This document shows positions 4,931 to 64,000 of a stretch of DNA of 64,000 nt, in pieces (the first letter of the stretch is position 1; each line of letters opens with the position of its first letter). The notes under the pieces are model-generated. The model ran no database searches. It had not been told where the DNA came from and saw nothing but the letters and a program-made list of their open reading frames with translations. The position numbers were made by a program, and so were the translations under genes. Origin of the DNA: an uncultured Candidatus Saccharibacteria bacterium (GTDB lineage: Bacteria > Patescibacteriota > Minisyncoccia > 2-02-FULL-40-12 > GWA2-44-9); NCBI GenBank assembly GCA_964553025.1, contig CAZKJF010000018.1:1641-65640 (forward strand), written 5' to 3'.

Positions 4931-6912
4931 ACGAGAGTTTTTACGATTGTAAGCCAGCGCTCGGTAAATTTCAGCCAGGAATAGCGCGCGCCGTGCGCAG
5001 GGCCTTCTGTTTTAATCCTATTCACTTTCGCCGTGTCCGTCAAAGCTTCCCGCATTGCAGCCGCAATGCGGGAAGGGCTGGCCTCGGTCGCATAAAACGC
5101 ATTATCTTCGAATAGTTCCCGCCCCAATTCGTTATCGGCGATAATCGGAGGTACTCCCAGCGCAAGTGCTTCCATCGGCGGCAAACCGAAAGCTTCACGA
5201 TCCGATACGTACAGGAGCGCCGCGGCATTTCGATATAAAACGGCTAATTCTTCTTGCGGCACATAATCTCGGTGACTTACCGCCTCGCGGCCAAGGGTTA
5301 AATTCACGGTTTTGACGATATAATCAATTGTCGGCGTTTCATATTTGTCGGGGCCAATCGTAATCAATCGGAAACTCGAAAATTCTTTGCCGATTTCTTT
5401 GAAAGCAAGGATCGTCTCTCGCAGATGCCGCCGCGGAAATGCTTGGCCGACGTACAGAAGATATGGATAATCAAGGACGGTGCCGCCTTCTTTCAGTTCT
5501 TCAATGTCTACGCCGAGCGGGTTGGCGATGATGCGTCGGGGATTAATGCGGTATAACCGCGCGACGTTTTTCTTTGAAGTTTCAGAAATGGTCATCACGC
5601 GCGACGCGCAATGAGCTGTCCACCAGCCGAAGATTCGATACGCCAGTCGGTAGCGGAACGGTAATTTCCCCTCGTGAGCCTCATAATAAATATCCTCGGT
5701 CAGAAGCGCGAACGAACGATTGAACGCGATGATCGGCAGCATATAGTTTGGCCAGAACATTACATTCAGACGCTCAAACCAGAGCTTAATCGGAAGCAAG
5801 AGATAGTAATAAATCGGGAACAGCCGCCGCCGAAACAGCGGGACGGGCGCAATTTTTTTCTCAAACATGGGTGATTTTAAAAACGGCAGATCAGGCGCTT
5901 CATCTTTGAAGTACAAAATAAATTCAAATGTTTCCGCCAGCTCGGGCTGCGCGGCGATTTGCTCGAGTAATTTAATGATCATTTTTCCGACTCCCCATAC
6001 TGGATTCTTGCCTTCGATTGATTCGCATTCGATGCCGACGCGGATTTTGGCGCCGTCGCCGCGATAGCCGACATAGAAGTCCTTGAAGCCAGCAAGAATC
6101 CCTTTGGAAGCTTCTGCATTTCTGCCCAGGAGTATCTTAAGCCATTGTTTCATTGCCACCCACCCGCTCCAGGGCACTGCCAAAAGAACTGCCCACAAGG
6201 GGCCGTGCTTGAAATTAAAGCGCAGCGCGCTGCGATAATGATGGCGAAATAAAAACGGCGAACCCATTTTGCCGGTAACTGCCGAAACCGCGTGGCGGAC
6301 TACAACATCATCGGTCAGGGTAAGCGGAATGCCGGCCCGATAGGCGCGAATGGAATAGTCGGCGTCTTCAAAATATAAAAAATATTTTTCGTCCAAGCCG
6401 CCGATGGTCTGGTAGGCGCGGCGGGATATAGCCATTGCCGCTCCGATTGCATAGGTATCGGGACCGATCCGTTCCGGTTTGTGGATATGCTGAAGCGTCG
6501 GTTTCAGCCACTGAATACTGCCCCCGTAGACGGTTCGGGAGCCCTCGTTGATAGCCAGGCCGACAAGCCCGTCTGAAGGGCCTAAAACGCCCTTCAGACG
6601 GGCGATAAAGTCAGTTTCGACCCAAGTGTCAGGATTGATCAGCAGAACCCAATCAGCCCCCTTTTTAAAGGCTTTAGCGAGGCCAAGGTTGCTGGCACCG
6701 GCGAAGCCGAGATTTCGAGGGCTGGAAATCAGATCAACCGAAGAGAAGTCTTGCTCAACCGCATGTTCGAGTTTTGTCCGGTCATGAGGCTTAGAATCAT
6801 TGTCCACGACAATCACCTCAAAGCTTGAATCGGTTTGATCCCGCAAAGATTTCAGGAGACGCAATAGTTCATCTGAGCCGTTGTAGTTGACGGAAACAAG
6901 CGATACTTTCAC
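4927..6912 (-). CDS. bifunctional glycosyltransferase (N-terminal GT2 domain fused to C-terminal GT4/GT1 domain)
   Basis: N-terminus MKVSLVSVNYNGSDELLRLLKSLRDQ..FEVIVVDNDS matches GT2. The C-terminus ...EALALGVPPIIADN...ELF is a GT4-type Rossmann motif. 661 aa. Confidence 0.7.
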   Translation of the reverse strand: MKVSLVSVNYNGSDELLRLLKSLRDQTDSSFEVIVVDNDSKPHDRTKLEHAVEQDFSSVDLISSPRNLGFAGASNLGLAKAFKKGADWVLLINPDTWVETDFIARLKGVLGPSDGLVGLAINEGSRTVYGGSIQWLKPTLQHIHKPERIGPDTYAIGAAMAISRRAYQTIGGLDEKYFLYFEDADYSIRAYRAGIPLTLTDDVVVRHAVSAVTGKMGSPFLFRHHYRSALRFNFKHGPLWAVLLAVPWSGWVAMKQWLKILLGRNAEASKGILAGFKDFYVGYRGDGAKIRVGIECESIEGKNPVWGVGKMIIKLLEQIAAQPELAETFEFILYFKDEAPDLPFLKSPMFEKKIAPVPLFRRRLFPIYYYLLLPIKLWFERLNVMFWPNYMLPIIAFNRSFALLTEDIYYEAHEGKLPFRYRLAYRIFGWWTAHCASRVMTISETSKKNVARLYRINPRRIIANPLGVDIEELKEGGTVLDYPYLLYVGQAFPRRHLRETILAFKEIGKEFSSFRLITIGPDKYETPTIDYIVKTVNLTLGREAVSHRDYVPQEELAVLYRNAAALLYVSDREAFGLPPMEALALGVPPIIADNELGRELFEDNAFYATEASPSRIAAAMREALTDTAKVNRIKTEGPAHGARYSWLKFTERWLTIVKTLV

Positions 6913-15082: not shown

Positions 15083-16924
15083 CTAATAGCTGAAATTGAT
15101 GTGGACTTTGTCGCTGTTTTTAGGAATCGAACGGACCCAGAGCGGCCGGAGGACAACGTTGGCCGAGGTGATATTCGGCAGGTTTTCTAAGTAATTCTTG
15201 ATGTCCTGGTCATGTTTGCCCAGGAGTTGGGCAGTCAGTTGGCCGGCGTCGATTTTGGCGTAAGCCCGGCCGGTAACGGTGACCGTCATAGTAAGCGTTT
15301 TGGCAGCCGGATCGTAATGATCATTGCTGTAGGTAACCGTAATTTTGCCGGGTTCGACATGAAGGCCGTTCTTGGCGTCCACATAACCGGCGATTAAGGA
15401 TTGAATATCAGATTCGCGGAAACCGACGGCAGTTACAGTGCCTTTGAGCGTCATGGTGATGGTATCGGCGGCTTCATCAACCTCGGCCGAAACGGTGGGC
15501 GCGGCAATTTGAATGTCTGATTGGCCGAGCACTTTCAATCCGCTGGCCTGGGATCCAAGTTCATCCTGAACTTGGGATTTTAGCTGGTCGGTAAGCGTGG
15601 CTTTCAAAATGTCGTAATCGCTCTGGGTTACGACATTCGCTTTACCGCTCGTACCGCCTTTCATGGGAGCGGCGGCCTTACCGTAAATTTTTTGGAATTT
15701 GGTCGCATCCCCTTTTTCCTGAAAAGCAGGGATGGTGAACGTGCCGGCGGCGACGTTGTAATCAGTGCCGGCTTTGTCCGCGATGATCTGAACGTTAACA
15801 GTTCCCGGCGTGGTTGCATTCTTGGCCGCCGGCACGTTCACATTCGTTAAAGTGCGGAATACGTGGCCGTCAGAAGAAGTAAAGCGCGTTGTTGCAATCA
15901 ATGATTGGGCGGCGTTGGTTTCATTATATATCGTAATCGTGCCTCGTGCTTTCTGAGCTACGTCTTTTTGGCCGGTCGTGGCGGCGCTTTGGGAAACTTC
16001 TTTTTGAACCGTGAAAATCTGGCCCGGGATTTTCATGCCCGCGGCGTCAACCGTAGCGATATTCTCGCCGGCGGCGACATTCAAAGCCAAATTAATCGGT
16101 GTGCTTTGGGGCTCGACGGTGACTTGGGCGCTGCCGGTAGTCATATAGAGTACGCCGGCGGCGGCGGCGAGCAGGGCGACGGCAAACGTCGCAATCAGGC
16201 GCGTACGCATGCGGCGCCCGGACTTGGGCGGGACGCTTGCGGGCGCAATCCTGGTTTTCAGGCCGGCTTTCTTGGCGACGAATTCAGGCCGCCACATGCT
16301 TTCAACGGCATCTTCATCGATACCGCGTTCAGCGGCGGGAATGTGGTGAACTTCGAGATTTTGCTGTTTCTCCCGGGTTGCGGAAATCTTAACCGGCTTC
16401 TGGTCTTCAATATCGTCAGTATCAATAATTTCCTCCATCCGTCGGGCAACAGCAGGAACCGTTTCGGCTTCGCCCTCGTCAATGTCTTCTTTGGGAGTTT
16501 CTTCTATTTCGGGTTCAGATTGATCTTCGGCAACTTCTTGTTCATCGGCTGGATCCTCCTCTGTTTCTTCAACTGCGATTTCATGCTTGGCCGGCGCAAC
16601 TTGGTAGAATTCTTCAATCTGATTGACGACGTTTACGGAGTTGGATTTTTTGCGGCTGGATGATGCGGGCCGGGACAGTAAAACGTCAAATCCGTATTGT
16701 TTGGCGATTTCATTAACGTCAGGATTCGAACACAGAAAAGAAACCGTCTTTTTGATGGAATTGGCTTCTTCTCGGAGCGTAGCGAAGTGAGCTTCTTTTT
16801 GGAATGCTTTGGAACGTTTGGGCAGGACGAAGATTACTTCAGCAGCCGGCGTAGACTTGAAGATATCAAGGATTTCGCTAAAGGAGTCGTCCTTTAAAAC
16901 ATTGATAATCTTTGTAGAAGCCAT
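15083..16924 (-). CDS. hypothetical bitopic membrane protein (613 aa): N-terminal cytoplasmic domain, long acidic linker, one TM helix, large extracytoplasmic domain
   Basis: Acidic stretch EETEEDPADEQEVAEDQSEPEIEETPKEDIDEGEAE and TM segment LIATFAVALLAAAAGVLYM. I recognise no family. Confidence 0.5.
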   Translation of the reverse strand: MASTKIINVLKDDSFSEILDIFKSTPAAEVIFVLPKRSKAFQKEAHFATLREEANSIKKTVSFLCSNPDVNEIAKQYGFDVLLSRPASSSRKKSNSVNVVNQIEEFYQVAPAKHEIAVEETEEDPADEQEVAEDQSEPEIEETPKEDIDEGEAETVPAVARRMEEIIDTDDIEDQKPVKISATREKQQNLEVHHIPAAERGIDEDAVESMWRPEFVAKKAGLKTRIAPASVPPKSGRRMRTRLIATFAVALLAAAAGVLYMTTGSAQVTVEPQSTPINLALNVAAGENIATVDAAGMKIPGQIFTVQKEVSQSAATTGQKDVAQKARGTITIYNETNAAQSLIATTRFTSSDGHVFRTLTNVNVPAAKNATTPGTVNVQIIADKAGTDYNVAAGTFTIPAFQEKGDATKFQKIYGKAAAPMKGGTSGKANVVTQSDYDILKATLTDQLKSQVQDELGSQASGLKVLGQSDIQIAAPTVSAEVDEAADTITMTLKGTVTAVGFRESDIQSLIAGYVDAKNGLHVEPGKITVTYSNDHYDPAAKTLTMTVTVTGRAYAKIDAGQLTAQLLGKHDQDIKNYLENLPNITSANVVLRPLWVRSIPKNSDKVHINFSY

Positions 16925-17915: not shown

Positions 17916-19610
17916 TTAATTCACCACCGCGCGGATGCGGCGGATGCCGGCGGAGACGGCTTCTTCTTTTTTGATGGTGAAAATGCCGATTTCGCCGGTA
18001 CGGGAGACATGCGGTCCGCCGCAGAGTTCCTTGGAATATTCGCCGATTGAGTAGACCGTCACCCGTTCCGGATATTTTTGCTTGAAAAATGCCAAAGCTC
18101 CCGATCGAAGGGCCTCATCCGAGCTCATTTCCCTCTTGGTAACGGGGACATCTTTGATGATCAGGTCATTTACCCATCCTTGAACAGCCAGCAATTCTTG
18201 ATCAGTTAATTTTCGGGAAAAATTAAAATCAAATCGTAGCCGTTCAGCCGTGATATCGGATCCGTTTTGGCGAACTTCCGGGCCAAGAACAGCGCGAAGT
18301 GCTGCCTGAAGGAGATGGGTGGCGGTGTGGAGGCGGGTTTTGACGGCCATTTCAGCCGCGTCGGTGGCGGTCAGATCGCCTTCTTTTATAATGCCATGGC
18401 CGCCGAATTTCTTTTCGGCACCGGCGCGGGAAATATCCTGATGGCGCTTGCGTTCAGCCTCGAATCCCTCGCGAGTCACGCCTTCGGCTTTGGCGCCGGC
18501 GACTTCTTTGATTACTTCAAACGGCAATCCGAAACTTTCATAGAGCCGAAAAGCCGATGCATCGTCCAAGCCGGAAGATTTTTCGAGCTCCTTGATGCCG
18601 CGTTCAAGCGTGCGGGAAAACTTTTCGATTTCCCCCATGACCGTATCGGCTATTTTTGTATCATCAGCTTCATTGAAGCCATATTCTTTCGCAATTGATT
18701 CGAGGATTTTATAGATGTCGATTTTCAAGCCTTTTTCGTAATATAGTTTTTGGTACACGGCAATCCGCCGGATTAGGCGCCGCAAGACATACCCCTGGTC
18801 TTTATTGTTCGGAGTGGCGCCGTCATGGATAAGATGAGCGATGGCCCGAGAGTGGTCGGCAATGACTCGTTTTATTTTTTGCTCTAATTCGGCCGGTAAT
18901 TGATCGAAGATGTAATCAAAAAGATCGGTTTCGAAGATATTTTGCTTCTTTTGAACGACCATGGCCAGGCGTTCCAGGCCCATCCCTGTATCAATGCCCT
19001 TGGTTTGCAAGGGCTTATATTGTCCGCCCGCGGTTTTATAGAATTCATTGAATACAATGTTCCAAACTTCAAGACCGTTCACATAAATCTCAGTCGTCGG
19101 CCCGCAGGGACCTTCTTCGCCTGTAGGGCCCCAGAAGTTATCCGCGCGGCCGGAGTAGACGATTTTGAGATTCGGATCAATGGATTGCCAGATTGATTCC
19201 GATTCAGCGTCCATCGGGACGGTTTCGTCGCCCGCAAACACAGAGACAGAGTCGATCGCCAGACCCATTTCTTTGGTGATGAATTCATGTGCATAGGAAA
19301 TAGCTTCTTTTTTCCAATAGCCGCCGAAAGAAAAATTGCCGAGCATTTCGAAAAACGTCAAATGCGAGCCGTCGCCAACTTCGTCGATATCGGAAGTTCG
19401 GAGGCATTTCTGGATCGAAACCGTATTCAAAGACTCGAAATCTTTCTCTGGATCGGCGCTGCCGGTGTAGTAGGGCTTGAACTGCTGCATGCCGGCGGTC
19501 GTGAACAGAACCGAGGGATCGGTCGGCAGGAGAGATGAAGACGGCACGGCAGCATGGCCTTTGCTTCGGAAGAATTCGAGGAACTTAGTCCGGATATCCT
19601 GATGAGTCAT
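17916..19610 (-). CDS. alaS: alanine--tRNA ligase, short form (catalytic plus editing domains, C-Ala domain absent)
   Basis: N-terminus MTHQDIRTKFLEFFRSKGHAAVPSSSLLP..FTTAGMQQFKP. The editing-domain motifs HTATHLL and CGGPHV sit near the C-terminus. 564 aa. Confidence 0.85.
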   Translation of the reverse strand: MTHQDIRTKFLEFFRSKGHAAVPSSSLLPTDPSVLFTTAGMQQFKPYYTGSADPEKDFESLNTVSIQKCLRTSDIDEVGDGSHLTFFEMLGNFSFGGYWKKEAISYAHEFITKEMGLAIDSVSVFAGDETVPMDAESESIWQSIDPNLKIVYSGRADNFWGPTGEEGPCGPTTEIYVNGLEVWNIVFNEFYKTAGGQYKPLQTKGIDTGMGLERLAMVVQKKQNIFETDLFDYIFDQLPAELEQKIKRVIADHSRAIAHLIHDGATPNNKDQGYVLRRLIRRIAVYQKLYYEKGLKIDIYKILESIAKEYGFNEADDTKIADTVMGEIEKFSRTLERGIKELEKSSGLDDASAFRLYESFGLPFEVIKEVAGAKAEGVTREGFEAERKRHQDISRAGAEKKFGGHGIIKEGDLTATDAAEMAVKTRLHTATHLLQAALRAVLGPEVRQNGSDITAERLRFDFNFSRKLTDQELLAVQGWVNDLIIKDVPVTKREMSSDEALRSGALAFFKQKYPERVTVYSIGEYSKELCGGPHVSRTGEIGIFTIKKEEAVSAGIRRIRAVVN

Positions 19611-19650
19611 GATCCTTGTAATCTATCAAAATAAGGGCTTTTAGACAATA

Positions 19651-19675
19651 CAAAAGGGCCTTATGGGAAGGCCCT
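19651..19675 (-). terminator. hairpin terminator (AGGGCC-loop-GGCCCT followed on the minus strand by TTTTGTATTG)
   Basis: aagggccttatgggaaggccctt, downstream of the small GC-rich ORF. Confidence 0.45.
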
Positions 19676-19921
19676 TTGCCGACGGCGAATGCGGCGGGAA
19701 TCGTGCGGTTCGATGCCGAGTTCAGCCAGGCGTTTGACGGCCCGGGCGTGGAGCGCATCGGCGCGAGCCGCGCGAGCGTGTGAAGCGCCGCTCGCGGTGA
19801 GCGGATGTTCTTCACGCCGGACTTCGGAACGCGGAGCGGATGAAGCCGGTGCGGCGGGTTCGGAAGGAAAGATTTTGCGCGTGAGAGTTTTGATCCGCGC
19901 CAGAATTTTTTTCTTCGGCAT
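19661..19921 (-). CDS. hypothetical small Arg/Ala-rich basic protein (86 aa) in a locally GC-rich (~65%) segment; coding status uncertain
   Basis: Has its own sigma70-like promoter (TTGCAT-N17-TAAAAT on the minus strand, 19965..19937), the ORF MPKKKILARIK..., and a terminator hairpin. Confidence 0.3.
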   Translation of the reverse strand: MPKKKILARIKTLTRKIFPSEPAAPASSAPRSEVRREEHPLTASGASHARAARADALHARAVKRLAELGIEPHDSRRIRRRQRAFP

Positions 19922-19996
19922 AAGGTTCTGATTTTTATTTTAAGTTCAAAGAAAATCTCATGCAACAAAAATCTGCGGATAACTTCAAAAAAAAAT

Positions 19997-20018
19997 CGCC
20001 GCGGCGAATGCCGCGGCG
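19997..20018 (-). terminator. rho-independent terminator (9-bp GC stem, T-run on minus strand)
   Basis: cgccgcggcgaatgccgcggcg preceded on the plus strand by aaaaaaaaa. The 20022..20393 ORF ends immediately upstream. Confidence 0.65.
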
Positions 20019-20021
20019 GAC

Positions 20022-20393
20022 TCAACCGTTCGAAAGATCAGGCTGGTCGAAAAATTTTTGAATGAGATCGGGACGGATGCCGTAGAGCAATCCTTGAATC
20101 CAGGATCGGTCTCGATACGATAAGCCGGCGTTATTGATAAATCTGATGGCGTCGGCCACCCATAATTCCCGATAGAAGTAAACGATCGTTTCTTGTTCGT
20201 CGACTCTGGGAAGCCAACTTACCCCCATCAGCGCAGCCTCCGCGTTGATCTCTTTGAGCGTCTCATCAAGGCCATGCGGCACTCCGATATCGGCGAGCGG
20301 CTTAATGCCTCGGCTGACGGCCCAGATCGCTATCGAAGCTTGTCCGGCAAGGTACGAAGTTGCGTTTATCGGCCTGAACTGACCTGTCTCCAT
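20022..20393 (-). CDS. hypothetical protein (123 aa), co-transcribed downstream of the helicase-nuclease
   Basis: 24-nt gap after the helicase gene and a terminator follows. I recognise no family. Confidence 0.45.
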   Translation of the reverse strand: METGQFRPINATSYLAGQASIAIWAVSRGIKPLADIGVPHGLDETLKEINAEAALMGVSWLPRVDEQETIVYFYRELWVADAIRFINNAGLSYRDRSWIQGLLYGIRPDLIQKFFDQPDLSNG

Positions 20394-20417
20394 GCGTGCT
20401 GAGGCGAGTATAGCAAC

Positions 20418-23297
20418 CTACATCAGCCGCCGCAAGGCGCAGAATTCGCAGTCTTTATCGTCGCATGAACTGTCGAGAAGTTTTCCGGATTTAACAGTGT
20501 CGATAAGGAGTTGGACTTCTTTTTTTAGAATTTCAATGTCCGATGTTTCGATAGGAAGGGAAACAATCGGGCAACGCCCCTTGGCATCCGGTTTGATAAA
20601 TACGAGCGCCGGTTCAATCGTTTTTTTGGCGGCGCGGGGATCACCGAGTACTAATAGCTTATAGAACACTAACTGTCGGAAATAATTGCCATCATCGGTT
20701 TGGGTCTGGCCTTTGATTGCATTCACGCTCATTGCTTCGCGGGTCTTATAATCATAGATGCTTACTAAAGTACTCGATTCGATAACAGCATCAAGTTTGC
20801 CGTGTAAAAGCAACTCTCCGAACATGGTTTCTCGGCGTGTTTCAGTCGCGATAGCGCCAGATTGTCGTACATGGGCGGCTAATGCGGCTGCGACGATTGG
20901 CGCATCTTCTAATAAAGCTTCCAATGCAGGAGCTTTTTCGAAAGATGGCAGCAGCGAAGTTGAAAAATATTCTTTCACCACACGGCTGATGGTTTCGCCT
21001 ATCGTGTCTTTGGTTTTATGGGGAAGATGCCACACTGCGGCCATGGCTTCGTGCATGGCATTGCCTTTTTCGGTATTGAGGGTAGGAGCTTCGGGCAATC
21101 GGAGAATACTTTTGTAAAAAAACTTGGACGGGCAATCGCAAAAGTGATTCAATGCGGTGACTGAAAGTCCATTTTCATAGAGTACTTTCTTGGCCAGTTC
21201 GGCTGCTTCAGCGCGGCGTTTTGATGCGCGATTCATGCCATGCGGCACCGTCTGTTTCATTGACGCGGGAAGATCGGTTCGGGAAATTTTAGTCTGATCA
21301 AGTTCAGAAATAAATCGCAGCGGCGTGAGCTGACGGCTGGCATCTTCCAATGGAGAAATAATTATCAAGCGTGATCGGGCGCGAGTCAGCGCGACGTAAA
21401 ATAATCGCCGTTCATCAAGAATATTTTCGCCCTCATCGGCCTGACGCGGCAATACAAAATATTCTCCCCGCGCTCGGGGCAGCCAGGATTCTTCGACGGC
21501 GTACGGCAAAAAAACGTTATCAAACTCCAATCCTTTGGAACCGTGAGCTGTCATGACTCGGATCGGCGCCGCCGCGGCGCCGATCGAGATCTTGATGGTT
21601 CGGCTTCCCGCCGATGTTTGATACTCCAGCAATGACCGTATCAATTCAAGCGGATTATCAGGATTTGCCAGCGCAAGCTCGCCCGCAAGCGATATAATGC
21701 CGCGCCAGATTTGAGCTGCAACCGGATCGTGCTGCGCAATGCGAGTAAGGCCGGATTCGTCGCCGGCCATAATAAGATAAGCTACAGCGCCGGAATGATT
21801 TAATTCTTTGCGCAATGCCGCAACGGCTGGAATTTCCTTTTCAACATCTGCCACGAGTCCGGCTCGGAGAGATTTCACGAGTCGAATCTGTTCATCAATT
21901 GCAAAGTCCCATAACCCGCCTCCAATGCATTGCGCAAGCGACTCGACATGAGCGGGATTTGCCAGAAAATCAATCAGAGCAAAGAAAAGCCTGCCAAACG
22001 GATCAGCAAATATATCGCTCCCTCGTTCGGCGTATGCCGGTATCTCGTACTGATCAAGCAATGATAAAACTCTTTGCAGATCGCTATTCCGGCGGGTGAT
22101 GATCGCAGTCGTTTGCTTCGGATGATTATGAAGGATCGTCTGGAGCTGGGCGGCAAGATATTCATCTGCTGCCAGGTTATTCCCAGCTACCACGACATCG
22201 ACGGATTCAGTATCTTTTCGATCTGCTTCTAGGCGGATTCGAAGTTCTCTGTATTCATCCGGCGCATAATTATGTTCAATCATTGCGAAACTGGCATCAA
22301 GAATATTCTGGTGAGAGCGATAATTTTTCTTTAATCGAATGAGTTCCATTCCCTGCCATTTTTTTTGGAAACTCATAAAGTTTTCAACTGATGCACCTTG
22401 AAAGCGATAGATTGCTTGCTTTTCATCCCCCACCACAAATAAATTCGGACTATCAAAAAATTCCGCAATTAAACGAATAAGCAGATTTTGAGCATCATTG
22501 GTGTCTTGGTGTTCATCGATGAGAATATATTGGAATTTTTCTTGCAATAAGCGCAACAATAACTCATCCTGTCGGATTTTTGCAATTACTTCGATGATTA
22601 AATCATCGAAGTCGATTTTTCTCTGTTCGCGTTTTGCCGTCTCGTATCGGTCGTATATTTCAGAAAAAAGTATCGTCCGTTCGCATTTTTCAATGCGTTT
22701 GAGACCCTCCGCTTTTACCTTGCCCTTTGTTGGGCCACGGGTAGATTTCCATTCATCAGCCGTTTGAATGCGCTTGATTTCATCATATGCGAATGATCGA
22801 ACTATTTCAGGGGTCCAGGCTTCAGACTTACAGTCGCCGATTGCCCCGATAATCTTAGGAACGAACAAATCGGGATCTCCGGCAGGGCGCAGATTGTAAA
22901 ATTGCTTATCTTTTAAAATCTCACGTATGATTGTTTCGGCTTGGATTTCAGTTAGTTGTTCGGCTCGGGCGATATGAGGGAAATGATCATCAAATTCGCT
23001 GATGATCGATCTCGCAAAACCGTGATAGGTGTGTAGGCGGACACGATCAGCTGGCCCACCCATGATGAGCCGTAAGCGGCGGCGCATTTCTTTAGCGCCG
23101 GCTTCGGTGAACGTAAGTGCCAGAATATTCTCCGGCTCGGCTTGAGTTTTACGGAGAATGTTGGCGATTCGAAGGGTAAGAATCTGGGTTTTGCCGGTGC
23201 CCGGCCCCGCCACGACCATCACCGGGCCTTCCACTGCATCCACAGCTTTCTTCTGCTCCGGGTTCAGCTGGTTGTAGTACATTTCAAAGTCGGCCAT
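20418..23297 (-). CDS. UvrD/PcrA-type SF1 DNA helicase fused to a C-terminal PD-(D/E)xK nuclease with Cas4/AddB-like Cys cluster
   Basis: Walker A VVAGPGTGKTQIL and UvrD-family motifs throughout the helicase part. The C-terminus has FCDCPSKFF ... IYDYKT ... SSCDDKDCEFC, giving 1+3 Cys around a D-x-K nuclease motif. Confidence 0.75.
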   Translation of the reverse strand: MADFEMYYNQLNPEQKKAVDAVEGPVMVVAGPGTGKTQILTLRIANILRKTQAEPENILALTFTEAGAKEMRRRLRLIMGGPADRVRLHTYHGFARSIISEFDDHFPHIARAEQLTEIQAETIIREILKDKQFYNLRPAGDPDLFVPKIIGAIGDCKSEAWTPEIVRSFAYDEIKRIQTADEWKSTRGPTKGKVKAEGLKRIEKCERTILFSEIYDRYETAKREQRKIDFDDLIIEVIAKIRQDELLLRLLQEKFQYILIDEHQDTNDAQNLLIRLIAEFFDSPNLFVVGDEKQAIYRFQGASVENFMSFQKKWQGMELIRLKKNYRSHQNILDASFAMIEHNYAPDEYRELRIRLEADRKDTESVDVVVAGNNLAADEYLAAQLQTILHNHPKQTTAIITRRNSDLQRVLSLLDQYEIPAYAERGSDIFADPFGRLFFALIDFLANPAHVESLAQCIGGGLWDFAIDEQIRLVKSLRAGLVADVEKEIPAVAALRKELNHSGAVAYLIMAGDESGLTRIAQHDPVAAQIWRGIISLAGELALANPDNPLELIRSLLEYQTSAGSRTIKISIGAAAAPIRVMTAHGSKGLEFDNVFLPYAVEESWLPRARGEYFVLPRQADEGENILDERRLFYVALTRARSRLIIISPLEDASRQLTPLRFISELDQTKISRTDLPASMKQTVPHGMNRASKRRAEAAELAKKVLYENGLSVTALNHFCDCPSKFFYKSILRLPEAPTLNTEKGNAMHEAMAAVWHLPHKTKDTIGETISRVVKEYFSTSLLPSFEKAPALEALLEDAPIVAAALAAHVRQSGAIATETRRETMFGELLLHGKLDAVIESSTLVSIYDYKTREAMSVNAIKGQTQTDDGNYFRQLVFYKLLVLGDPRAAKKTIEPALVFIKPDAKGRCPIVSLPIETSDIEILKKEVQLLIDTVKSGKLLDSSCDDKDCEFCALRRLM

Positions 23298-23343
23298 ATG
23301 AACTCAGTGTACTGATTTCCGCTGAATTCCGCCAGAAGCGAAA

Positions 23344-23363
23344 GACCGCCCTTCGGGCGGTCG
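23344..23363 (-). terminator. hairpin terminator for the Cys-rich ORF
   Basis: gaccgcccttcgggcggtc followed on the minus strand by TTTCGCTTCT. Confidence 0.4.
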
Positions 23364-23387
23364 AAATAATCGGGTCAGGCATTGAAT

Positions 23388-23660
23388 TCAGGCAGCTTCC
23401 TTCAGAAGTCTTTTGGCCGACTCTATGCTCATCTTATGGCAAGCGACAAGATGATCTTTCATCCGGCCCGCCAGAATGGCGCGACCGCAGCAGCGGCATA
23501 GTCCATCACAACACGGCATCGCGTGGACAATGTCTCGATCTTCGGGGGGCTCAAAAATATGGATCGGCGCCGACATGAAACGATCATACGGGCCGCCTTT
23601 TCGAATGACTCGGTCATGGCAATCGCAATAGCATTCGTGAGCGCAGGTTACATGACTCAT
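23388..23660 (-). CDS. hypothetical Cys/His-rich metal-binding protein (90 aa, 11 Cys)
   Basis: MSHVTCAHECYCDCHD...MPCCDGLCRCCGRA...VACHK, with its own terminator. Confidence 0.45.
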   Translation of the reverse strand: MSHVTCAHECYCDCHDRVIRKGGPYDRFMSAPIHIFEPPEDRDIVHAMPCCDGLCRCCGRAILAGRMKDHLVACHKMSIESAKRLLKEAA

Positions 23661-23695
23661 AAAGAACTCTCGTTAGTATATTCCTCGGCCCGCGA

Positions 23696-24730
23696 ATGTC
23701 AAAAATATTGGCATCAAAACTTGCTGATTATCGGAATATAACGTATAATATATCTGCTATGCTGATTGATGATATTACAATTCGCGTTGTTGCCGGCAAA
23801 GGCGGCGACGGTACCGTCTCATTCAACAAAAACATGATGTCGCTCGGGCCCTCGGGAGCCTCCGGCGGCCGCGGCGGCGATGTCTATGTCGAAGGTATTT
23901 CCGACCTGGGCGCTTTGACGCGGCTTCGCCATGCCAAAGTTTTTCGCGCCGCCGACGGCGGCGTCGGCGGGCGCCAGTTCAACGATGGCTCTGACGGAGA
24001 AGATCTCGTTATTCCCGTCCCCGTCGGCACCGTTGTCCATAACCTGGAAACCAAAGAAGATGTTGAAGTGACCAAGATCGGCGAGAAAATCAAAATTGCC
24101 CGCGGCGGCCGCGGCGGCAAGGGTAATTTTCATTTCCGATCTTCGACTAATACCAGCCCCAAGCAATTCCAAGAAGGCCTGCCGGGAGAAAAATTCAAAA
24201 TCCGTCTCGAGCTCAAACTGATCGCTGATGTCGGCTTTATCGGCTTGCCCAACGCCGGCAAATCGAGTTTGCTCAATGAACTCACGCGTGCCAAAAGCAA
24301 AGTTGCCAATTACGCGTTTACCACCTTGGAACCGAATTTGGGCGTGTATTACTCCCTGATTCTAGCTGACGTGCCAGGAATCATTGAAGGCGCGGCCGAA
24401 GGCCGCGGCCTGGGCTTGAAGTTTTTGCGGCACGTGGAGCGGACAAAAACTCTCTTTCATTTAATTTCCGCCGAATCGGATGATCCGGTCCGAGATTACC
24501 GGATCATCCGTTCGGAATTAGGGCGTTATAACCAAGAGCTTCTGAACAAGAAGGAGTATCTGTTTGTCAGCAAATCGGATATTGTCGCGCCTGAAATCCT
24601 CAAAAAAACCCTCACTGCGCTTAAAAAATTGAATTCTTCCATCGCCCCAATTTCCATTCATGACGTCGATAGCCTCAAAGAAGTTCAGAAAATATTGAAC
24701 GGAATTGCAGATCAAAAAACCGCGGCCTAG
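23696..24730 (+). CDS. obg: GTPase Obg/CgtA (alternative start ATG 23758)
   Basis: Gly-rich Obg fold ITIRVVAGKGGDGTVSFNKN...GGRGGDVYV and G-domain GLPNAGKSSLLNELT...NYAFTTLEPNLGV. Confidence 0.9.
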   Translation: MSKILASKLADYRNITYNISAMLIDDITIRVVAGKGGDGTVSFNKNMMSLGPSGASGGRGGDVYVEGISDLGALTRLRHAKVFRAADGGVGGRQFNDGSDGEDLVIPVPVGTVVHNLETKEDVEVTKIGEKIKIARGGRGGKGNFHFRSSTNTSPKQFQEGLPGEKFKIRLELKLIADVGFIGLPNAGKSSLLNELTRAKSKVANYAFTTLEPNLGVYYSLILADVPGIIEGAAEGRGLGLKFLRHVERTKTLFHLISAESDDPVRDYRIIRSELGRYNQELLNKKEYLFVSKSDIVAPEILKKTLTALKKLNSSIAPISIHDVDSLKEVQKILNGIADQKTAA

Positions 24731-57967: not shown

Positions 57968-58041
57968 GGATCAGATATATCAAAAAATAAATAGGCGGCT
58001 AAGCCGCCCTATTTATTATCGCAAAATCCCGATTTTGTCAA

Positions 58042-58257
58042 CTATTGGGCTGGTTTTATGAGATCATATAGGAAGAAAGAGACAAATGAAACCAAAAAGC
58101 ACAACGCGCCAAATGTATCCTCGCGGGGCCATGACGCGAAATGCGTCAACGGCAAAGACAGAGTTTCCGGGTGGGTGGACGCGTTGATCGCAATATACAC
58201 CCACCCCAAAAGTCCGAATATGAACAAGGTTTTTGATGCTGATTGAATGAATTTCAT
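58042..58257 (-). CDS. small membrane protein (71 aa)
   Basis: Two predicted TM helices. Confidence 0.3.
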   Translation of the reverse strand: MKFIQSASKTLFIFGLLGWVYIAINASTHPETLSLPLTHFASWPREDTFGALCFLVSFVSFFLYDLIKPAQ

Positions 58258-58266
58258 GATTATAAT

Positions 58267-59574
58267 TTACTGACCGTTCAGGACTTTTTCAAGCGCGTCA
58301 TAAGCCGGCTTCTTGCTGCCGTCATACCTTACCAATCCAAAGAAGTTTTCTTTATTACTACTGTCAGTCCCTACATCTTGGAAAGAGTACCAAAGAAAAG
58401 GTCCCGCCCACGCATACTCCTTATAGTGAGCTAACGCATCCTCCAATATTCTTGATTGCAAATCCTCACTTACATGATCGGCTGCTCCTTCTTTCTTTGT
58501 ATTTCCCAGAATGGCCATATCTCCAGGGCCATTGGTCGGAGCTCCAAATTCTGTAATCCAAATTTTCTTTTGCCCATCACCATTATTCGCCATTATCTGG
58601 TACATCTGCGTCATACCCGGCCATGGATTTCCTGTTGTATTAAAGCTCGGCAAAAAGGGATACGAGTAAGGATGTACTGCTACTCCATCAAAGTATCCTT
58701 TTGCACCATTTGCATACAATTGCTTAACAAAATCAATTTCACCTATATTCCCCTGTCCTGTCATAACCGCAGCCAGACCGCCGGTAAGAACTGTTGCATT
58801 CGGATCGACATTCTTGATTGCAATATAGCTTGCCTTTAATAGAGAGACATAAGAAGACATGTTTACCGTTGGCATCCAGTACCCATAATAGTTCTCCTCG
58901 TTCCAAATTTCCCAAACCTTTACTCCACTAGCTGCATATCTCTTAGCCGCCAAAGAGACAAATTCCGCAAATTGCGAAGGGTCCGCTGGCGCACACTTAT
59001 TTGAAGAGCAGCCAGATGTTCGGGCCCATGTTGGAGTATAGGTCAATAATGCTATTGGTTCTATTCCAAGCTCTTGAGCAACAGAAACAACTAAATCGTA
59101 TCCTGCCCAATTATAAGACTTAGGACCATCTTTTTGAACCAAACTCCAGTCAATATCAAATCTGATCCATTTCACGCCCGCATTCTTCATGACTTGAAAC
59201 CGGGCAGTTAAATCTTTCCGGGACAAAAAAGAAAGACCACCACCGGCCGCAATACCAAAATTGTCTTGCAATGATACAGGCGTATTTGTGTTGGGCACAC
59301 TTGAAGGTTGGGGCAAAGGAGTATTTGCTTTTGAAGAAATTGGTATTACTGTCCTTGCTGGTTTTTGAGGAGATGGCCGAGGGGTCGGAGTCGGCGCAAA
59401 CTGGGATCGATGAGAGAAGAAAGGGTAACGGATCAAGGCCATCGGGCTTTCTTGCTGACTCACGTCTGTTGCGACTTGAGGCATTCTAAAATAAAATACC
59501 CCTAGAACAAGGAGAGTAACCAGGATAATAGAGAGAAAAATCAGTTTACCAAATTCGGGATGTCTATTGCTCAA
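58267..59574 (-). CDS. glycoside hydrolase, clan GH-A TIM-barrel (GH5/GH39-like) with PT linker
   Basis: TM anchor, a PT-rich linker, an acid/base region KVWEIWNEENYYG and a nucleophile region KIWITEFGAP. Confidence 0.65.
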   Translation of the reverse strand: MSNRHPEFGKLIFLSIILVTLLVLGVFYFRMPQVATDVSQQESPMALIRYPFFSHRSQFAPTPTPRPSPQKPARTVIPISSKANTPLPQPSSVPNTNTPVSLQDNFGIAAGGGLSFLSRKDLTARFQVMKNAGVKWIRFDIDWSLVQKDGPKSYNWAGYDLVVSVAQELGIEPIALLTYTPTWARTSGCSSNKCAPADPSQFAEFVSLAAKRYAASGVKVWEIWNEENYYGYWMPTVNMSSYVSLLKASYIAIKNVDPNATVLTGGLAAVMTGQGNIGEIDFVKQLYANGAKGYFDGVAVHPYSYPFLPSFNTTGNPWPGMTQMYQIMANNGDGQKKIWITEFGAPTNGPGDMAILGNTKKEGAADHVSEDLQSRILEDALAHYKEYAWAGPFLWYSFQDVGTDSSNKENFFGLVRYDGSKKPAYDALEKVLNGQ

Positions 59575-60891
59575 AGCTTGATTTTACTTAAATATTGGGC
59601 TATAATAGTAATTACCTATTATAGCACATCCTTGAAAGAAAAGCTTTATAATTTATACCAGGATAGCTTATTCCGTAACTCCTTTTTTCTTATCCTAACT
59701 TCCGGCCTCATGGCTGGATTTGGCTTCTTTTTTTGGCTTATTTGTGCACGTGTTTTTGACGCCAAAAATGTTGGCTTGGCAACATCTCTTATTTCTGCAG
59801 CATCTCTTATGTCTATCTTCAGTACTCTTGGGTTTAACAATGTAATTATTCGTTTCCTCCCAACTTCCCAAAGAAAAGACCATCAAATATCGACAGCCCT
59901 AATTTCAACAGGAATTCTTAGTATTATTGTTTCTGCCCTATTCTGTATTTGGGCAATTTTTACTCACAATTCAGCTTTTACAGCGACTAACGTATTATGG
60001 TTGCTAATTATGACCTTCTCACTGCAGGTCTTCAGTACAACTCTTAACACTATATTCGAGAGTGTCTTTATAGCATATCGTCGTGCAGGATATATTTTGA
60101 CAAAGAGCATCATCTTTAGCACTTTAAAATTAATTATCCTTTTCACTGTCATTGATTACGGTTTTTATGGCATCCTTGGTGCCACTGCTATTTCTACAAC
60201 GATAGCTTGTCTCTTAAGTATCATCTGGCTAATAAAGAAATTTTCTTACCACCCGGTTTTAACTATTGATTCTGAAACAGTTGAAGAAACAAAACATTTT
60301 GCAGCAGGAAATTATCTAGGCACTCTGTTTGGCATACTACCTTCTACAACTTTAATCCTTATTATTTCTTCTCGACTTGGTCCTGAATTTGCTGCATTCT
60401 TCTATATCCCTTCCATGTTTATTACCTTATTGAATGTCATCCCTAGTTCAAGTGCCCAATCTTTCTTCGCAGAAGTATCCCACGATGAACCTGGAATGCA
60501 TACTTACTTTAAACAAACAATAAAACATCTCTTCGGACTTCTTGTCCCGGCTTCAGCCTTAATTATCTTAGCTGGTGGTTATATTTTAAGTTTTTTTGGA
60601 GCTAATTACGCCCAAGCAGGCACAAATCCTCTACGTATCATGGTGCTAGCAAGTTTTGTCGGTGCCGCAAATTATCTTGGAGATACCTTATTGAATATTA
60701 AAAAGATGTCGAGAACATATATATTCATGAATGCTTTGAACTCTCTTGCTATTGTTATTCCAGCTTACATTGTGGCACCTTATGGCCTCGTGACTATTGC
60801 ATGGATATCCCTACTGGGACAAATTATAACATTGGGTATTTACCTAATCATAAACCGGAATCTCCTTATTAGCTTGCGAACAAACTCTTGA
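59560..60891 (+). CDS. polysaccharide biosynthesis flippase (Wzx / MOP superfamily)
   Basis: About 12-14 TM helices with typical Wzx-like topology. AT-rich gene. Confidence 0.65.
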   Translation: MSIAQSLILLKYWAIIVITYYSTSLKEKLYNLYQDSLFRNSFFLILTSGLMAGFGFFFWLICARVFDAKNVGLATSLISAASLMSIFSTLGFNNVIIRFLPTSQRKDHQISTALISTGILSIIVSALFCIWAIFTHNSAFTATNVLWLLIMTFSLQVFSTTLNTIFESVFIAYRRAGYILTKSIIFSTLKLIILFTVIDYGFYGILGATAISTTIACLLSIIWLIKKFSYHPVLTIDSETVEETKHFAAGNYLGTLFGILPSTTLILIISSRLGPEFAAFFYIPSMFITLLNVIPSSSAQSFFAEVSHDEPGMHTYFKQTIKHLFGLLVPASALIILAGGYILSFFGANYAQAGTNPLRIMVLASFVGAANYLGDTLLNIKKMSRTYIFMNALNSLAIVIPAYIVAPYGLVTIAWISLLGQIITLGIYLIINRNLLISLRTNS

Positions 60892-61951
60892 TAGCATTTC
60901 TGGTATTTTCAACAATTGAAGGCCAGTTTAACTTCTCGGCATAAGCCTTTGCGTTTTGAGATTTTTGTTCTAATTTCTCAAGATTTTCAGCTGATTTGAC
61001 CATTGCATCAATCAGGCCATTAGGAGAAACGGGGTTATATTTGTAAACCAAATTGTCAGGTAAGAGAGATAAATCTCCAAGATTGGGCACTATTGCAGAT
61101 CGACCAAAAGAGAAAGAAAGGAGAATTGAACTTGAAGTAGTCACTTTTTTAAAAGGCAGGACCGTAATATTTGCGGCCGCAAAATAAAATTGCAACTCAT
61201 CATCAGGAATTATACCATCATGCCAAATAATTTCATTCGATTCTGACGCCTTATCCAATACTGAACGTAAATGTCGATCCAAACAAAGCCCTCCCACAAT
61301 AAGATGATTATGAGAGCTTTTAATTTTTCTATAAGCGCCCAATAAATCTTCTAATCCTTTATACGGCCTGATACTCCCTATGTAGAGATAAACAAAATCA
61401 CCTAGGGGAATCCGCAACCTTTGTCTACTTTCAAGTCTTTCTGCACCCATTGGATATACTCCAATATAACTCCCAATTGGTACTACAATACTTTTATGTG
61501 GCTTCATTATCTTGATTATTTCGTTTTGTGTTAGAACAGATGGAAATATTACGAGATCAGATTTTTTAATTAAATTAACTCGGGCCTGAAAATCATTTAA
61601 AAACACAGACTCGTGAGGCATAATATTGTGAGCCGTCCATACCAATTTATATCCTAAAAACTTGATCAGAAACAAACAAAATAGATAATACTGATAAAGG
61701 ATTTTCTTTGCAATTCGATTTTGCCAGATTTTTGCTTTGAGAGAAAAGGGGTATACCCAATGAATATGTAAAATTTTATATCCTTGTGTCCTTTTTAAGA
61801 CAAAGAAAACAGGTAAGGAAAATAAATTAAGAGTAGCGCTTGAAGAAAAAGATGGTATATATACAATATTATCACCTCTTTCTCGCATGTGCCGATAGAG
61901 AAGCTCTTGATATGGATTTCCTGTATCTCTAGGGAAAGCAAGAATTTTCAT
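60869..61951 (-). CDS. glycosyltransferase family 4
   Basis: C-terminal GT4-like block ...YIGSIRPYKGLEDLL...; N-terminal Rossmann half. Confidence 0.65.
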   Translation of the reverse strand: MKILAFPRDTGNPYQELLYRHMRERGDNIVYIPSFSSSATLNLFSLPVFFVLKRTQGYKILHIHWVYPFSLKAKIWQNRIAKKILYQYYLFCLFLIKFLGYKLVWTAHNIMPHESVFLNDFQARVNLIKKSDLVIFPSVLTQNEIIKIMKPHKSIVVPIGSYIGVYPMGAERLESRQRLRIPLGDFVYLYIGSIRPYKGLEDLLGAYRKIKSSHNHLIVGGLCLDRHLRSVLDKASESNEIIWHDGIIPDDELQFYFAAANITVLPFKKVTTSSSILLSFSFGRSAIVPNLGDLSLLPDNLVYKYNPVSPNGLIDAMVKSAENLEKLEQKSQNAKAYAEKLNWPSIVENTRNAIKSLFAS

Positions 61952-61953
61952 AA

Positions 61954-62844
61954 TTATTTATGGAGTAAAATTAGAATAACTTTTTTATAAAACCCCAAGG
62001 CATAGATGAGATTCAAAAAAGTTGTTTTAAATGGCTTTTGGCGGATATTTTTGATTATTGGAATAATAATAGTAAGCGGATACCACCAAAAAATAAAAGT
62101 GAGCGGCAAGCCGAGCATCCATGCTCCATATATGATGGGAACGGTATTGTCCCCAGTAATTTTCCAGCGTTGTTTAGGGTGTTTTTTCAAGAGCTGGGCT
62201 TTCGCCATTCCGTATTTGAAAGCTCGCTTCACTTCATCTTTAAAGTTACCCCAATCATGAGTAACAACTGCTTCTCGCACAAATCGAATACGATTACCTT
62301 TTTCTATTGACCGCCATGTAAAATCAACATCGGAACCAAAAGAAAATGACTCATCGAAACCACCTACTGATTCCCAGACACTCTTTTTAAAAGCCAAGTT
62401 AATAGTGGGGCTCGAAGTTAAATAATCGCCTTTTTTATCAGCCGAATTTAAATTTACATGAGTATGCGGACTAAAAGCCTTAACTGATCCCGCCGTCATT
62501 GTTTCTCGGCCCTGGATAATTGGTTCCGTGAGGTTAATAAGCCAATTTTCCGAAGGAACACAGTTTGCATCAATAAAGACAATAATATCCCCGAGCGCAT
62601 TTTTAATACCCATATTTCTTTGCTCTGGAATAGATGCTTTATTCTTAATTACGGAAGGAGCGAAATTAAACCAACGAACCTCAGGATATTTTTTTCTAAG
62701 TGATTCAAACAGGCCTACCCGTGAAGCATCCACAACAATAATTTCGTTGGGAAGCGAACTTTTTTGATACGTCAAAGCATCTAGAGTATTCGCGATACCC
62801 CAGTCATTTTTAACAATTATGATAATTGAAATAACCGGTTTCAT
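61954..62844 (-). CDS. glycosyltransferase family 2
   Basis: MKPVISIIIIVKNDWGIANTLDALTYQ...IIVVDAS...FIDANCVP matches GT2. Confidence 0.75.
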   Translation of the reverse strand: MKPVISIIIIVKNDWGIANTLDALTYQKSSLPNEIIVVDASRVGLFESLRKKYPEVRWFNFAPSVIKNKASIPEQRNMGIKNALGDIIVFIDANCVPSENWLINLTEPIIQGRETMTAGSVKAFSPHTHVNLNSADKKGDYLTSSPTINLAFKKSVWESVGGFDESFSFGSDVDFTWRSIEKGNRIRFVREAVVTHDWGNFKDEVKRAFKYGMAKAQLLKKHPKQRWKITGDNTVPIIYGAWMLGLPLTFIFWWYPLTIIIPIIKNIRQKPFKTTFLNLIYALGFYKKVILILLHK

Positions 62845-62847
62845 AGA

Positions 62848-63948: not shown

Positions 63949-64000
63949 AAGTTTCTTAATTCGCGACCAGCGAGTTACCCAAAAAGAAATCTTGTTTAAA

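Follow-up and report, generated by a model that had tools for sequence, protein, structure and literature searches.

A UvrD–Cas4-like helicase–nuclease fusion in housekeeping synteny of Patescibacteria

Fusions of a UvrD-like helicase to a Cas4-like nuclease make up the largest branch of the pfam12705 family (Hudaiberdiev et al. 2017, PMC5704561). Helicases and Fe-S nucleases also meet in the two-subunit enzymes AddAB and AdnAB, where the 5′ strand falls to the Fe-S nuclease (AddB or AdnA, respectively); the Fe-S subdomain of AdnAB lies at the strand-separating junction (PMC3321194, PMC8789073, PMC13000450). The [4Fe-4S] cluster of AddB is held by C801, C1121, C1124 and C1130, the first in an inter-helix turn and the other three on a loop and the C-terminal helix (PMC3321194). 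Here we describe a 959-aa helicase–nuclease encoded in a 64,000-nt stretch of contig CAZKJF010000018.1 (hereafter the window), which was assembled from an uncultured Candidatus Saccharibacteria bacterium. With an N-terminal UvrD-like superfamily 1 (SF1) helicase, a C-terminal PF12705 nuclease and four cysteines, the protein has the same order of parts as the UvrD–Cas4-like fusions and, judged by sequence, belongs to that already-described class, from which its core-genome setting differs. The explanation that we favor as a whole, with reasonable though not strong confidence, is a Patescibacteria UvrD–Cas4-like fusion that serves DNA maintenance. A first-pass annotation had instead seen a helicase–nuclease paired with a 123-aa protein in a two-gene operon, flanked by a cysteine-rich 90-aa mini-protein and possibly active in defense; the coordinates and lengths that it gave for the three open reading frames (ORFs) were confirmed. 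The helicase–nuclease and its parts are as follows, clade A being one of two forms introduced below.

20418–23297, minus strand: helicase–nuclease gene, 959 aa, from the ORF listing; UvrD–Cas4-like fusion, clade A form.
21288–23297, minus strand: residues 1–670, SF1A motor of UvrD/PcrA type, from motif and PDB sequence matches.
Motor motifs within it: Walker A GPGTGKT (residues 31–37), DEHQD (261–265), motif III GDEKQAIYRFQGA (290–302), YRS (326–328), TAHGSKGLE (583–591) and RRLFYVALTRA (630–640).
20418–21167, minus strand: residues 711–959, RecB-fold PD-(D/E)xK nuclease domain, PF12705.
20790–20792 and 20745–20753, minus strand: catalytic residues D836 and D849-Y-K851, followed by Q875…Y879.
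21132–21134, minus strand: Cys722, predicted first Fe-S ligand, placed by the model in the turn between helices 713–721 and 723–731.
20439–20465, minus strand: Cys945-x4-Cys950-x2-Cys953, predicted Fe-S ligands 2–4, on the terminal loop and last helix.
20571–20573, minus strand: Cys909, a fifth invariant cysteine, present in 100% of 119 clade A homologues.

On the evidence of its motifs, the 959-aa protein contains a complete SF1A (3′→5′ type) motor of the UvrD/PcrA kind, as the first-pass annotation had proposed. Pfam assigned UvrD-helicase (PF00580) to residues 11–313 (E = 4.7e-63) and also recognized UvrD_C (PF13361; E = 3.3e-31), and every SF1A motif was invariant in the 119 homologues as well as across clades A and B. 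Among solved motors, PcrA (1pjr; E = 2.4e-54) and UvrD (5e-51) were the closest by sequence, at ~25% identity, with weaker matches to AdnB (1e-23), AddA (9e-21) and RecB (1.5e-14). The PcrA/UvrD/Rep group is thus the nearest in its motor, with all SF1A motifs and domains 1A, 1B, 2A and 2B present here; unlike these helicase-only proteins, however, the 959-aa protein has ~290 extra C-terminal residues that form a nuclease. A full-length model (predicted local distance difference test score, pLDDT, 82.8) had AddA as its best PDB match over the whole chain, followed by PcrA/UvrD, AdnA, RecB and AddB.

The proximity of the motor to PcrA and UvrD, much greater than to AdnB, AddA or RecB, raises the main competing explanation: the protein might serve its lineage as an equivalent of UvrD/PcrA into which a strand-degrading nuclease is built, acting in nucleotide-excision repair, mismatch repair, clearance of RecA filaments or replication–transcription conflicts rather than in double-strand-break resection, in reduced genomes without separate single-stranded DNA exonucleases. 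In line with this, PcrA was the best NCBIfam model for the protein, and JGI names its homologues PcrA or helicase II. Scores nonetheless fell far below the equivalog cut-offs for both PcrA (TIGR01073; 272 vs. 911 bits) and UvrD (TIGR01075; 219 vs. 1144 bits), neither PcrA nor UvrD is known to carry a nuclease, and nucleases of this class act on free ends in resection enzymes. We regard such an equivalent as unlikely, although it deserves to be kept in view.

The nuclease domain was recognized by PF12705 (PDDEXK_1) at residues 711–957 (E = 2.4e-22; 80.5 bits against a cut-off of 22 bits). D836, D849, K851, Q875 and Y879 were invariant in the 119 homologues, and the motifs are also intact in clade B. 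The nearest solved folds to this domain were those of Dna2, AdnA and Cas4, and when the isolated domain was passed to PADLOC, Cas4 models were the sole matches and covered both cysteine-bearing ends. By sequence, a narrow profile of the domain found no match in the PDB; a wider profile built from both clades reached the AdnA nuclease (E = 3.4e-4), with the cysteine segments lying outside the alignment. As this wider profile aligns G-x-x-D and D-x-K, D849 corresponds to D934 of AdnA.

Five cysteines of the domain (C722, C909, C945, C950 and C953) are invariant in clade A; the wider family of clade A, clade B and the Hymenobacter relative has conserved only a 1+3 set, C722 plus C945/C950/C953. 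The first-pass annotation had described a nuclease bracketed by 1+3 cysteines within the strings FCDCP and SSCDDKDCEFC. Both strings are present and the 1+3 arrangement stands; C720 of FCDCP, on the other hand, is poorly kept (28% of homologues), and the fifth invariant cysteine of clade A, C909, has to be added. C722 occurs in 100% of the 119 clade A homologues and in 77% of clade B, where serine accounts for 17%, and C945, C950 and C953 occur in 99% of clade A and in 94, 83 and 94% of clade B, respectively. C909, in contrast, is specific to clade A, being replaced by tyrosine or isoleucine in clade B and absent from the Hymenobacter relative. The models put C945 and C950 on the terminal loop and C953 within the last helix (951–958). 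Modeled in this way, the four conserved cysteines are placed like the [4Fe-4S] ligands of AddB and are predicted to hold a cluster; the comparison with AddB and Cas4 was made on topology and on coverage of the domain ends by hidden Markov models. Since the profile, PADLOC and model results and the topology of the cysteines agree with the AddB/Cas4 type, the proposal of an AddB/Cas4/Dna2-type Fe-S nuclease on a UvrD motor is supported, the cluster itself being a prediction.

Beyond Patescibacteria, a single member served for comparison of the helicase with other fusions: a plasmid-encoded protein of Hymenobacter (Bacteroidota) that aligns end to end (93% coverage, 26% identity). Distant as it is, this fusion has an identical ‘C-P’ at the first cysteine and the same C-x4-C-x2-C triad. 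Compared with the published UvrD–Cas4-like fusions, the gene described here belongs to the core genome of Patescibacteria and sits in housekeeping synteny, and clade A adds C909.

The other known systems each share some of these parts. AddAB splits over two subunits what the 959-aa protein joins in one: the full-length model best matches AddA along its whole chain, and the predicted Fe-S ligands have the topology of AddB. Still, the AddA equivalog TIGR02785 was not reached (144.5 bits vs. a cut-off of 707.65), and no inactive helicase-like domain of the kind that recognizes Chi was identified in the 959-aa protein. AdnAB is a heterodimer of two paralogues from one operon, in which the motor-like domain of AdnA is described as trailing and the AdnB motor as driving; here, a single gene with a fully intact motor has no paralogue beside it in any of 88 loci (this window and 87 others, including the 80 best from a scan of species-representative genomes). 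With respect to RecBCD, the protein has neither an equivalog-level RecB score nor RecC and RecD partners. In Dna2, the domain order is reversed and the motor is of SF1B type. Cas4, a small protein of one domain, accompanies Cas1–Cas2; the 959-aa protein scored 25.9 bits against 65 for TIGR00372, and no gene within 10 kb of it belonged to a Cas1 or Cas2 Pfam family.

The distribution of the gene speaks to its role. The 959-aa protein is 100% identical to a protein from a metagenome-assembled genome (MAG) labeled ‘Candidatus Paceibacterota’ (GCA_035548855.1, contig DASZRS010000004.1), and more than 7,600 database proteins matched it at E ≤ 1e-10. Nearly all of the top 120 homologues are 950–1,030 aa long, are full-length and share the Pfam architecture, and those with names are all Patescibacteria (Yanofsky-, Zambryski-, Taylorbacteria and others). 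At least 598 stretches of species-representative genomes, out of 600 listed, encode a relative; the best 80 loci come from MAGs nearly all labeled as Patescibacteria-type. In the window, the gene is accompanied by Obg, an ABC transporter, AlaRS, Dus and an infA-rpmJ-rpsM-rpsK-rpsD-rpoA-rplQ cluster, and its position between Obg and AlaRS–Dus is retained in an 84%-identical sister genome (L002) and in a 70%-identical relative. More generally, the commonest slot (54 of 80 loci) lies between rpoC-dnaG-rpoD and the oppositely oriented genes dsbA, an RNaseH-like exonuclease and hisS, with dsbA as the immediate downstream gene in 44 of the 80; obg/alaS and yqeY/MFS-rnj are further recurrent slots. 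In this canonical slot, a ~190-aa RNase_H_2/PolB-exonuclease-like gene was seen two genes downstream on the opposite strand in 39 of the 80 loci (e.g. L006 15014–15595 and L007 13673–14251), a linkage that may be purely syntenic although it keeps another nuclease close by.

Constraint on the helicase–nuclease equals that on its housekeeping neighbors: relative to the sister genome, the ratio of nonsynonymous to synonymous divergence (dN/dS) was 0.048, compared to 0.055 for Obg and 0.052 for AlaRS. No second copy was found within ±6 kb in the 88 loci, and among the matches listed, contigs of 738, 599, 407 and 346 kb had one match each. Nor did we find an AddB- or RecC-like gene within 10 kb here or beside the gene in the 87 other loci (~6–10 kb), as the first-pass annotation had noted for this locus. 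One copy per sampled locus and contig, together with the core-genome position, argues for a DNA-maintenance enzyme rather than a multi-gene or defense system, and we are confident that this core gene encodes a housekeeping enzyme and not part of a two-gene or defense module. Conservation in all relatives, which the earlier annotation had named as the mark of a housekeeping gene, indeed held for all relatives sampled. Two features of this distribution would also suit the UvrD/PcrA equivalent considered above: the canonical slot adjoins dnaG-rpoD, and neither the 64-kb window nor the 1.17 Mb of loci sampled contained a second UvrD-like gene.

The possible defense role put forward initially would make the protein an anti-phage or anti-plasmid UvrD–Cas4-type effector that degrades the ends of invading DNA, alone or with its small neighbors, following a Gabija-, Nhi- or Hachiman-like logic. 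PADLOC did return strong GajB matches for the 959-aa protein, but these were confined to the generic UvrD core. In Gabija, moreover, GajB adjoins the OLD-family ATPase–nuclease GajA, and there is no GajA-like neighbor or other OLD partner here, weak GajA matches near the gene tracing to the ATPase of the ABC transporter. The flanks encode Obg, AlaRS, Dus and ribosomal proteins, and a PADLOC check of the flanking genes gave no defense-family match beyond generic ABC-ATPase similarity. The gene is essentially absent from plasmids and phages, with a full-length relative in only one of 72,556 plasmids and none of 50,697 phage records, and the small neighbors are not conserved. In favor of defense, RecBCD-type enzymes are themselves anti-phage hubs (PMC9836394). 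With conservation across the sampled phylum, one copy per locus, core synteny and a dN/dS of 0.05, we consider a dedicated defense effector very improbable. The locus can accordingly be struck off as a candidate defense system and assigned to a fusion class that has been described but is biochemically uncharacterized.

The most likely role of this housekeeping enzyme is DNA-end or fork processing for recombinational repair; end resection as its specific task is a tentative assignment, to which we give somewhat less than even confidence. In the mechanism that we propose, starting from a DNA end, a nick or a stalled fork, the motor would use ATP to move 3′→5′ along one strand and unwind the duplex, while the tethered, Fe-S-stapled nuclease would degrade a strand. 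By analogy with AddB, AdnA, Dna2 and Cas4, this might be the displaced 5′-ended strand, leaving a 3′ tail for RecA. A single polypeptide, possibly as a homodimer, would thereby do what AddAB and AdnAB do with two subunits, its one chain uniting an active AddA/AdnB-like motor with a Fe-S nuclease like that of AddB or AdnA. RecA is widespread in the candidate phyla radiation (CPR), as implied by a preprint on RecA as a CPR marker, beyond which the literature searched on recombination and repair in Patescibacteria/CPR yielded nothing useful. If the enzyme were the sole resection or UvrD-type activity of these ultra-small genomes, it would represent the simplest bacterial helicase–nuclease for recombinational repair and a compact model for the division of labor within AddAB/AdnAB-type heterodimers.

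Several points weigh against this reading. In RecB, AddA and AdnB, it is the 3′ tracking strand rather than the 5′ strand that the nuclease on the active motor receives and cuts. The cysteines match AddB in topology (one cysteine ~300 aa upstream of a C-terminal triad) but not in spacing, which is C-x4-C-x2-C instead of the canonical C-x2-C-x5-C. In 13–17% of clade B, serine occupies one predicted ligand position (C722 or C950), which suggests that some clade B lineages have lost or altered the cluster. Published contexts of UvrD–Cas4-like fusions comprise type III restriction–modification genes, Dcm/Vsr or non-conserved surroundings, and a defense-ancillary role has been proposed (PMC5704561). 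To this can be added that the sole plasmid copy, the 26–27%-identical Hymenobacter protein with the same cysteine signature, is located beside BREX-1 and umuDC, and that close relatives carry one or the other of two divergent forms at a single locus, a pattern resembling that produced by arms races. A defense role could also draw on these last three points. Finally, no biochemistry or later characterization of UvrD–Cas4-like fusions was found in the literature searched.

The two forms are clade A, which includes the 959-aa protein and has a mean internal identity of ~51%, and clade B, the identity between the two being 32–39%. Each of the three syntenic slots has members of both clades at the identical position:

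rpoD, helicase–nuclease, dsbA: clade A in 28 loci, clade B in 26.
obg, helicase–nuclease, alaS: clade A in 3 loci, clade B in 4.
yqeY, helicase–nuclease, MFS: clade A in 2 loci, clade B in 3.

The clades are not told apart by their flanking markers: RpoD identity averaged 0.72 within A, 0.68 within B and 0.69 between them, and the nearest neighbor by marker carried the same helicase clade in just 26 of 42 cases. For instance, L003 (clade A) and L040 (clade B) are about equally similar to the window in Obg (0.75 and 0.77, respectively), the ABC permease (0.76 and 0.74), AlaRS (0.65 and 0.62) and Dus (0.64 and 0.62), whereas their helicase–nucleases share 0.70 and 0.39 identity with that of the window. 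Like contrasts exist in the other slots (L082 vs. L085; L016 vs. L014 and L070). The clades differ most in domain 2B (14% identity), the linker, domain 1B and the Fe-S arm, and least in the motor core (~58% identity). Because the Hymenobacter outgroup resembles clade B more than clade A, and because C909 is specific to clade A, the latter looks derived. The alternation is most economically read as the result of recombination within the conserved flanks that has repeatedly replaced the gene in situ; on this reading, the locus would be a concrete and testable case of a core DNA-repair gene being exchanged in place. Formally, the alternation could also stem from a tandem pair in the ancestor, with reciprocal loss in every lineage, or each genome might carry a second copy at another site. 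The identity tiers (44–55% and 31–35%) had also prompted us to consider an unlinked AdnA/AdnB-like pair of paralogues, an idea that was rejected given the lack of a second copy within ±6 kb in the 88 loci, the intact motifs of both clades and their use of the same slots.

The surroundings of the helicase–nuclease gene hold two small genes and the following transcription signals.

20022–20393, minus strand: 123-aa gene, from the ORF listing.
23388–23660, minus strand: 90-aa Cys/His-rich gene, from the ORF listing.
19997–20018, minus strand: strong intrinsic terminator at the end of the helicase–123-aa unit; nine G-C pairs, a 4-nt loop, then T9.
23344–23362, minus strand: weaker terminator-like hairpin 3′ of the 90-aa gene; 8-pair stem (seven G-C) with an interrupted T-rich tail.
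23675–23702, minus strand: candidate sigma-70-like promoter upstream of the 90-aa gene; TTGACA-16-TATACT, 11 of 12 positions, by consensus match alone.

The strong terminator noted earlier behind the 123-aa gene is thus borne out, and it is also kept in the sister genome. The 90-aa gene had been called separately terminated; a hairpin does follow it, 47 nt ahead of the helicase start codon, but is the weaker of the two. As no promoter-like site was found between this hairpin and the helicase ATG, read-through into the helicase gene from the candidate promoter at 23675–23702 is possible. Only 24 bp, without a terminator, separate the helicase stop from the start of the 123-aa gene, and the two are probably co-transcribed, judging from this layout.

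Both small ORFs are real genes, yet confined to this genome and its sister: the 70%-identical relative, in which alaS directly follows the helicase and a 165-bp gap precedes it, lacks both, as do 80 other loci. With the two present in 2 of 88 loci, the operon unit with accompanying mini-protein that had been envisaged is not supported, and no recurrent Cys-rich ORF was found beside the helicase–nuclease in other loci. Neither protein had a match in Pfam, NCBIfam, PADLOC or PHROGs, so that the 123-aa protein is uncharacterized, as the first-pass annotation had stated. Among 5.8 billion proteins, its single close homologue was the 120-aa product of the L002 gene at the same position, which is 55% identical (vs. 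84% for the helicase), with a dN/dS of 0.19. The 90-aa gene is 74% identical in L002, with an in-frame 3-codon indel, nine of ten cysteines retained and a dN/dS of 0.13; no homologue was found outside L002. Its product contains 10 cysteines, not the 11 counted previously, and seven histidines. In the C-terminal half, C55, C58, H70 and H75 form a C2H2 zinc-finger-like C-x2-C-x11-H-x4-H pattern, and the N-terminus bears a CAHECxCDCH cluster, both kept in L002; the product is probably metal-binding.

A profile search of 1.84 billion representatives recovered 36 remote relatives of the 123-aa protein, which is therefore no true orphan. Their common signature reads K-P-x-A-E-V-G ... Y-G-F-Y-R-x-P-W ... 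D-R-x-W-I-x-G-L-L-F-G-Y-x-x-x-A-I-Q-x-F, and they had no match in Pfam or the PDB. Those with available context lie in mobile DNA: one, fused to DUF551, is flanked by the genes for the small and large terminase subunits on a phage contig (L090 1950–2741), another adjoins a large serine recombinase (L093 427–876), and two are on IMG/VR viral contigs (L094 and L095, ~5001–5483), the viral scan having used 10 closer members of the family as queries. Given these relatives in mobile DNA and the pairing in two genomes, the 123-aa gene appears to be a recent insert from a family associated with phages or mobile elements; no direct or inverted repeats were found around the 0.8-kb insert between helicase and alaS. 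Both small genes are best seen as recent lineage-specific insertions, neither being a general partner of the helicase–nuclease.

That the helicase–nuclease and the 123-aa protein nevertheless work as a functional pair in this lineage, with the latter as a captured phage-family regulator or inhibitor (cf. Gam, gp5.9 and Abc2 acting on RecBCD), would agree with their close spacing and common terminator, an arrangement kept in the sister genome, with purifying selection on the 123-aa gene and with the presence of its family in phage genomes. As the pairing is limited to the two loci, the family was not seen beside helicase–nucleases elsewhere, the protein has no structural or functional annotation and the adjacency may be an accident of the insertion site, we think such a pair exceedingly improbable. 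A bolder version of the end-resection proposal, in which the enzyme is the only such machine of Patescibacteria, a minimal and possibly ancestral-like equivalent of AddAB/AdnAB whose active lead motor is joined directly to a 5′-strand Fe-S nuclease, clades A and B are swapped as targets of phage inhibitors and the 123-aa gene is a possible modulator, strikes us as rather improbable.

Between the strong terminator and alaS, a stretch of ~390 nt (19611–19996, minus strand) is 92% identical to L002 12725–13132, while the genes around it show a synonymous divergence (pS) of 0.6–0.7 relative to L002. NCBI annotates an 86-aa ORF in it (19661–19921; pS 0.26, dN/dS 0.44). The stretch has a variable central patch and a terminal hairpin (19677–19653) ~40 nt before the alaS ATG, with a folding z-score of −2.3; it had no Rfam match, and the 70%-identical relative lacks it. 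Rather than coding for a protein, it may act as a conserved leader or small RNA.

Elsewhere in the window, the 613-aa protein encoded between dus and infA (15083–16924, minus strand) has a weak Baseplate_J match in the Pfam table. Because a 572-aa gene without a Pfam match takes the same position in a Yanofskybacteria relative, the 613-aa gene appears to be conserved and of unknown function, not prophage debris. Over the last ~6 kb (58001–64000), GC content falls from 0.50–0.57 to 0.35–0.42, which might reflect a foreign island or chimeric joining of the MAG contig. Canonical bacterial AlaRS has ~870 aa; the AlaRS of the window (17916–19610, minus strand) has only 564 aa, comprising tRNA-synt_2c and tRNA_SAD, and those of its relatives measure 551–564 aa.

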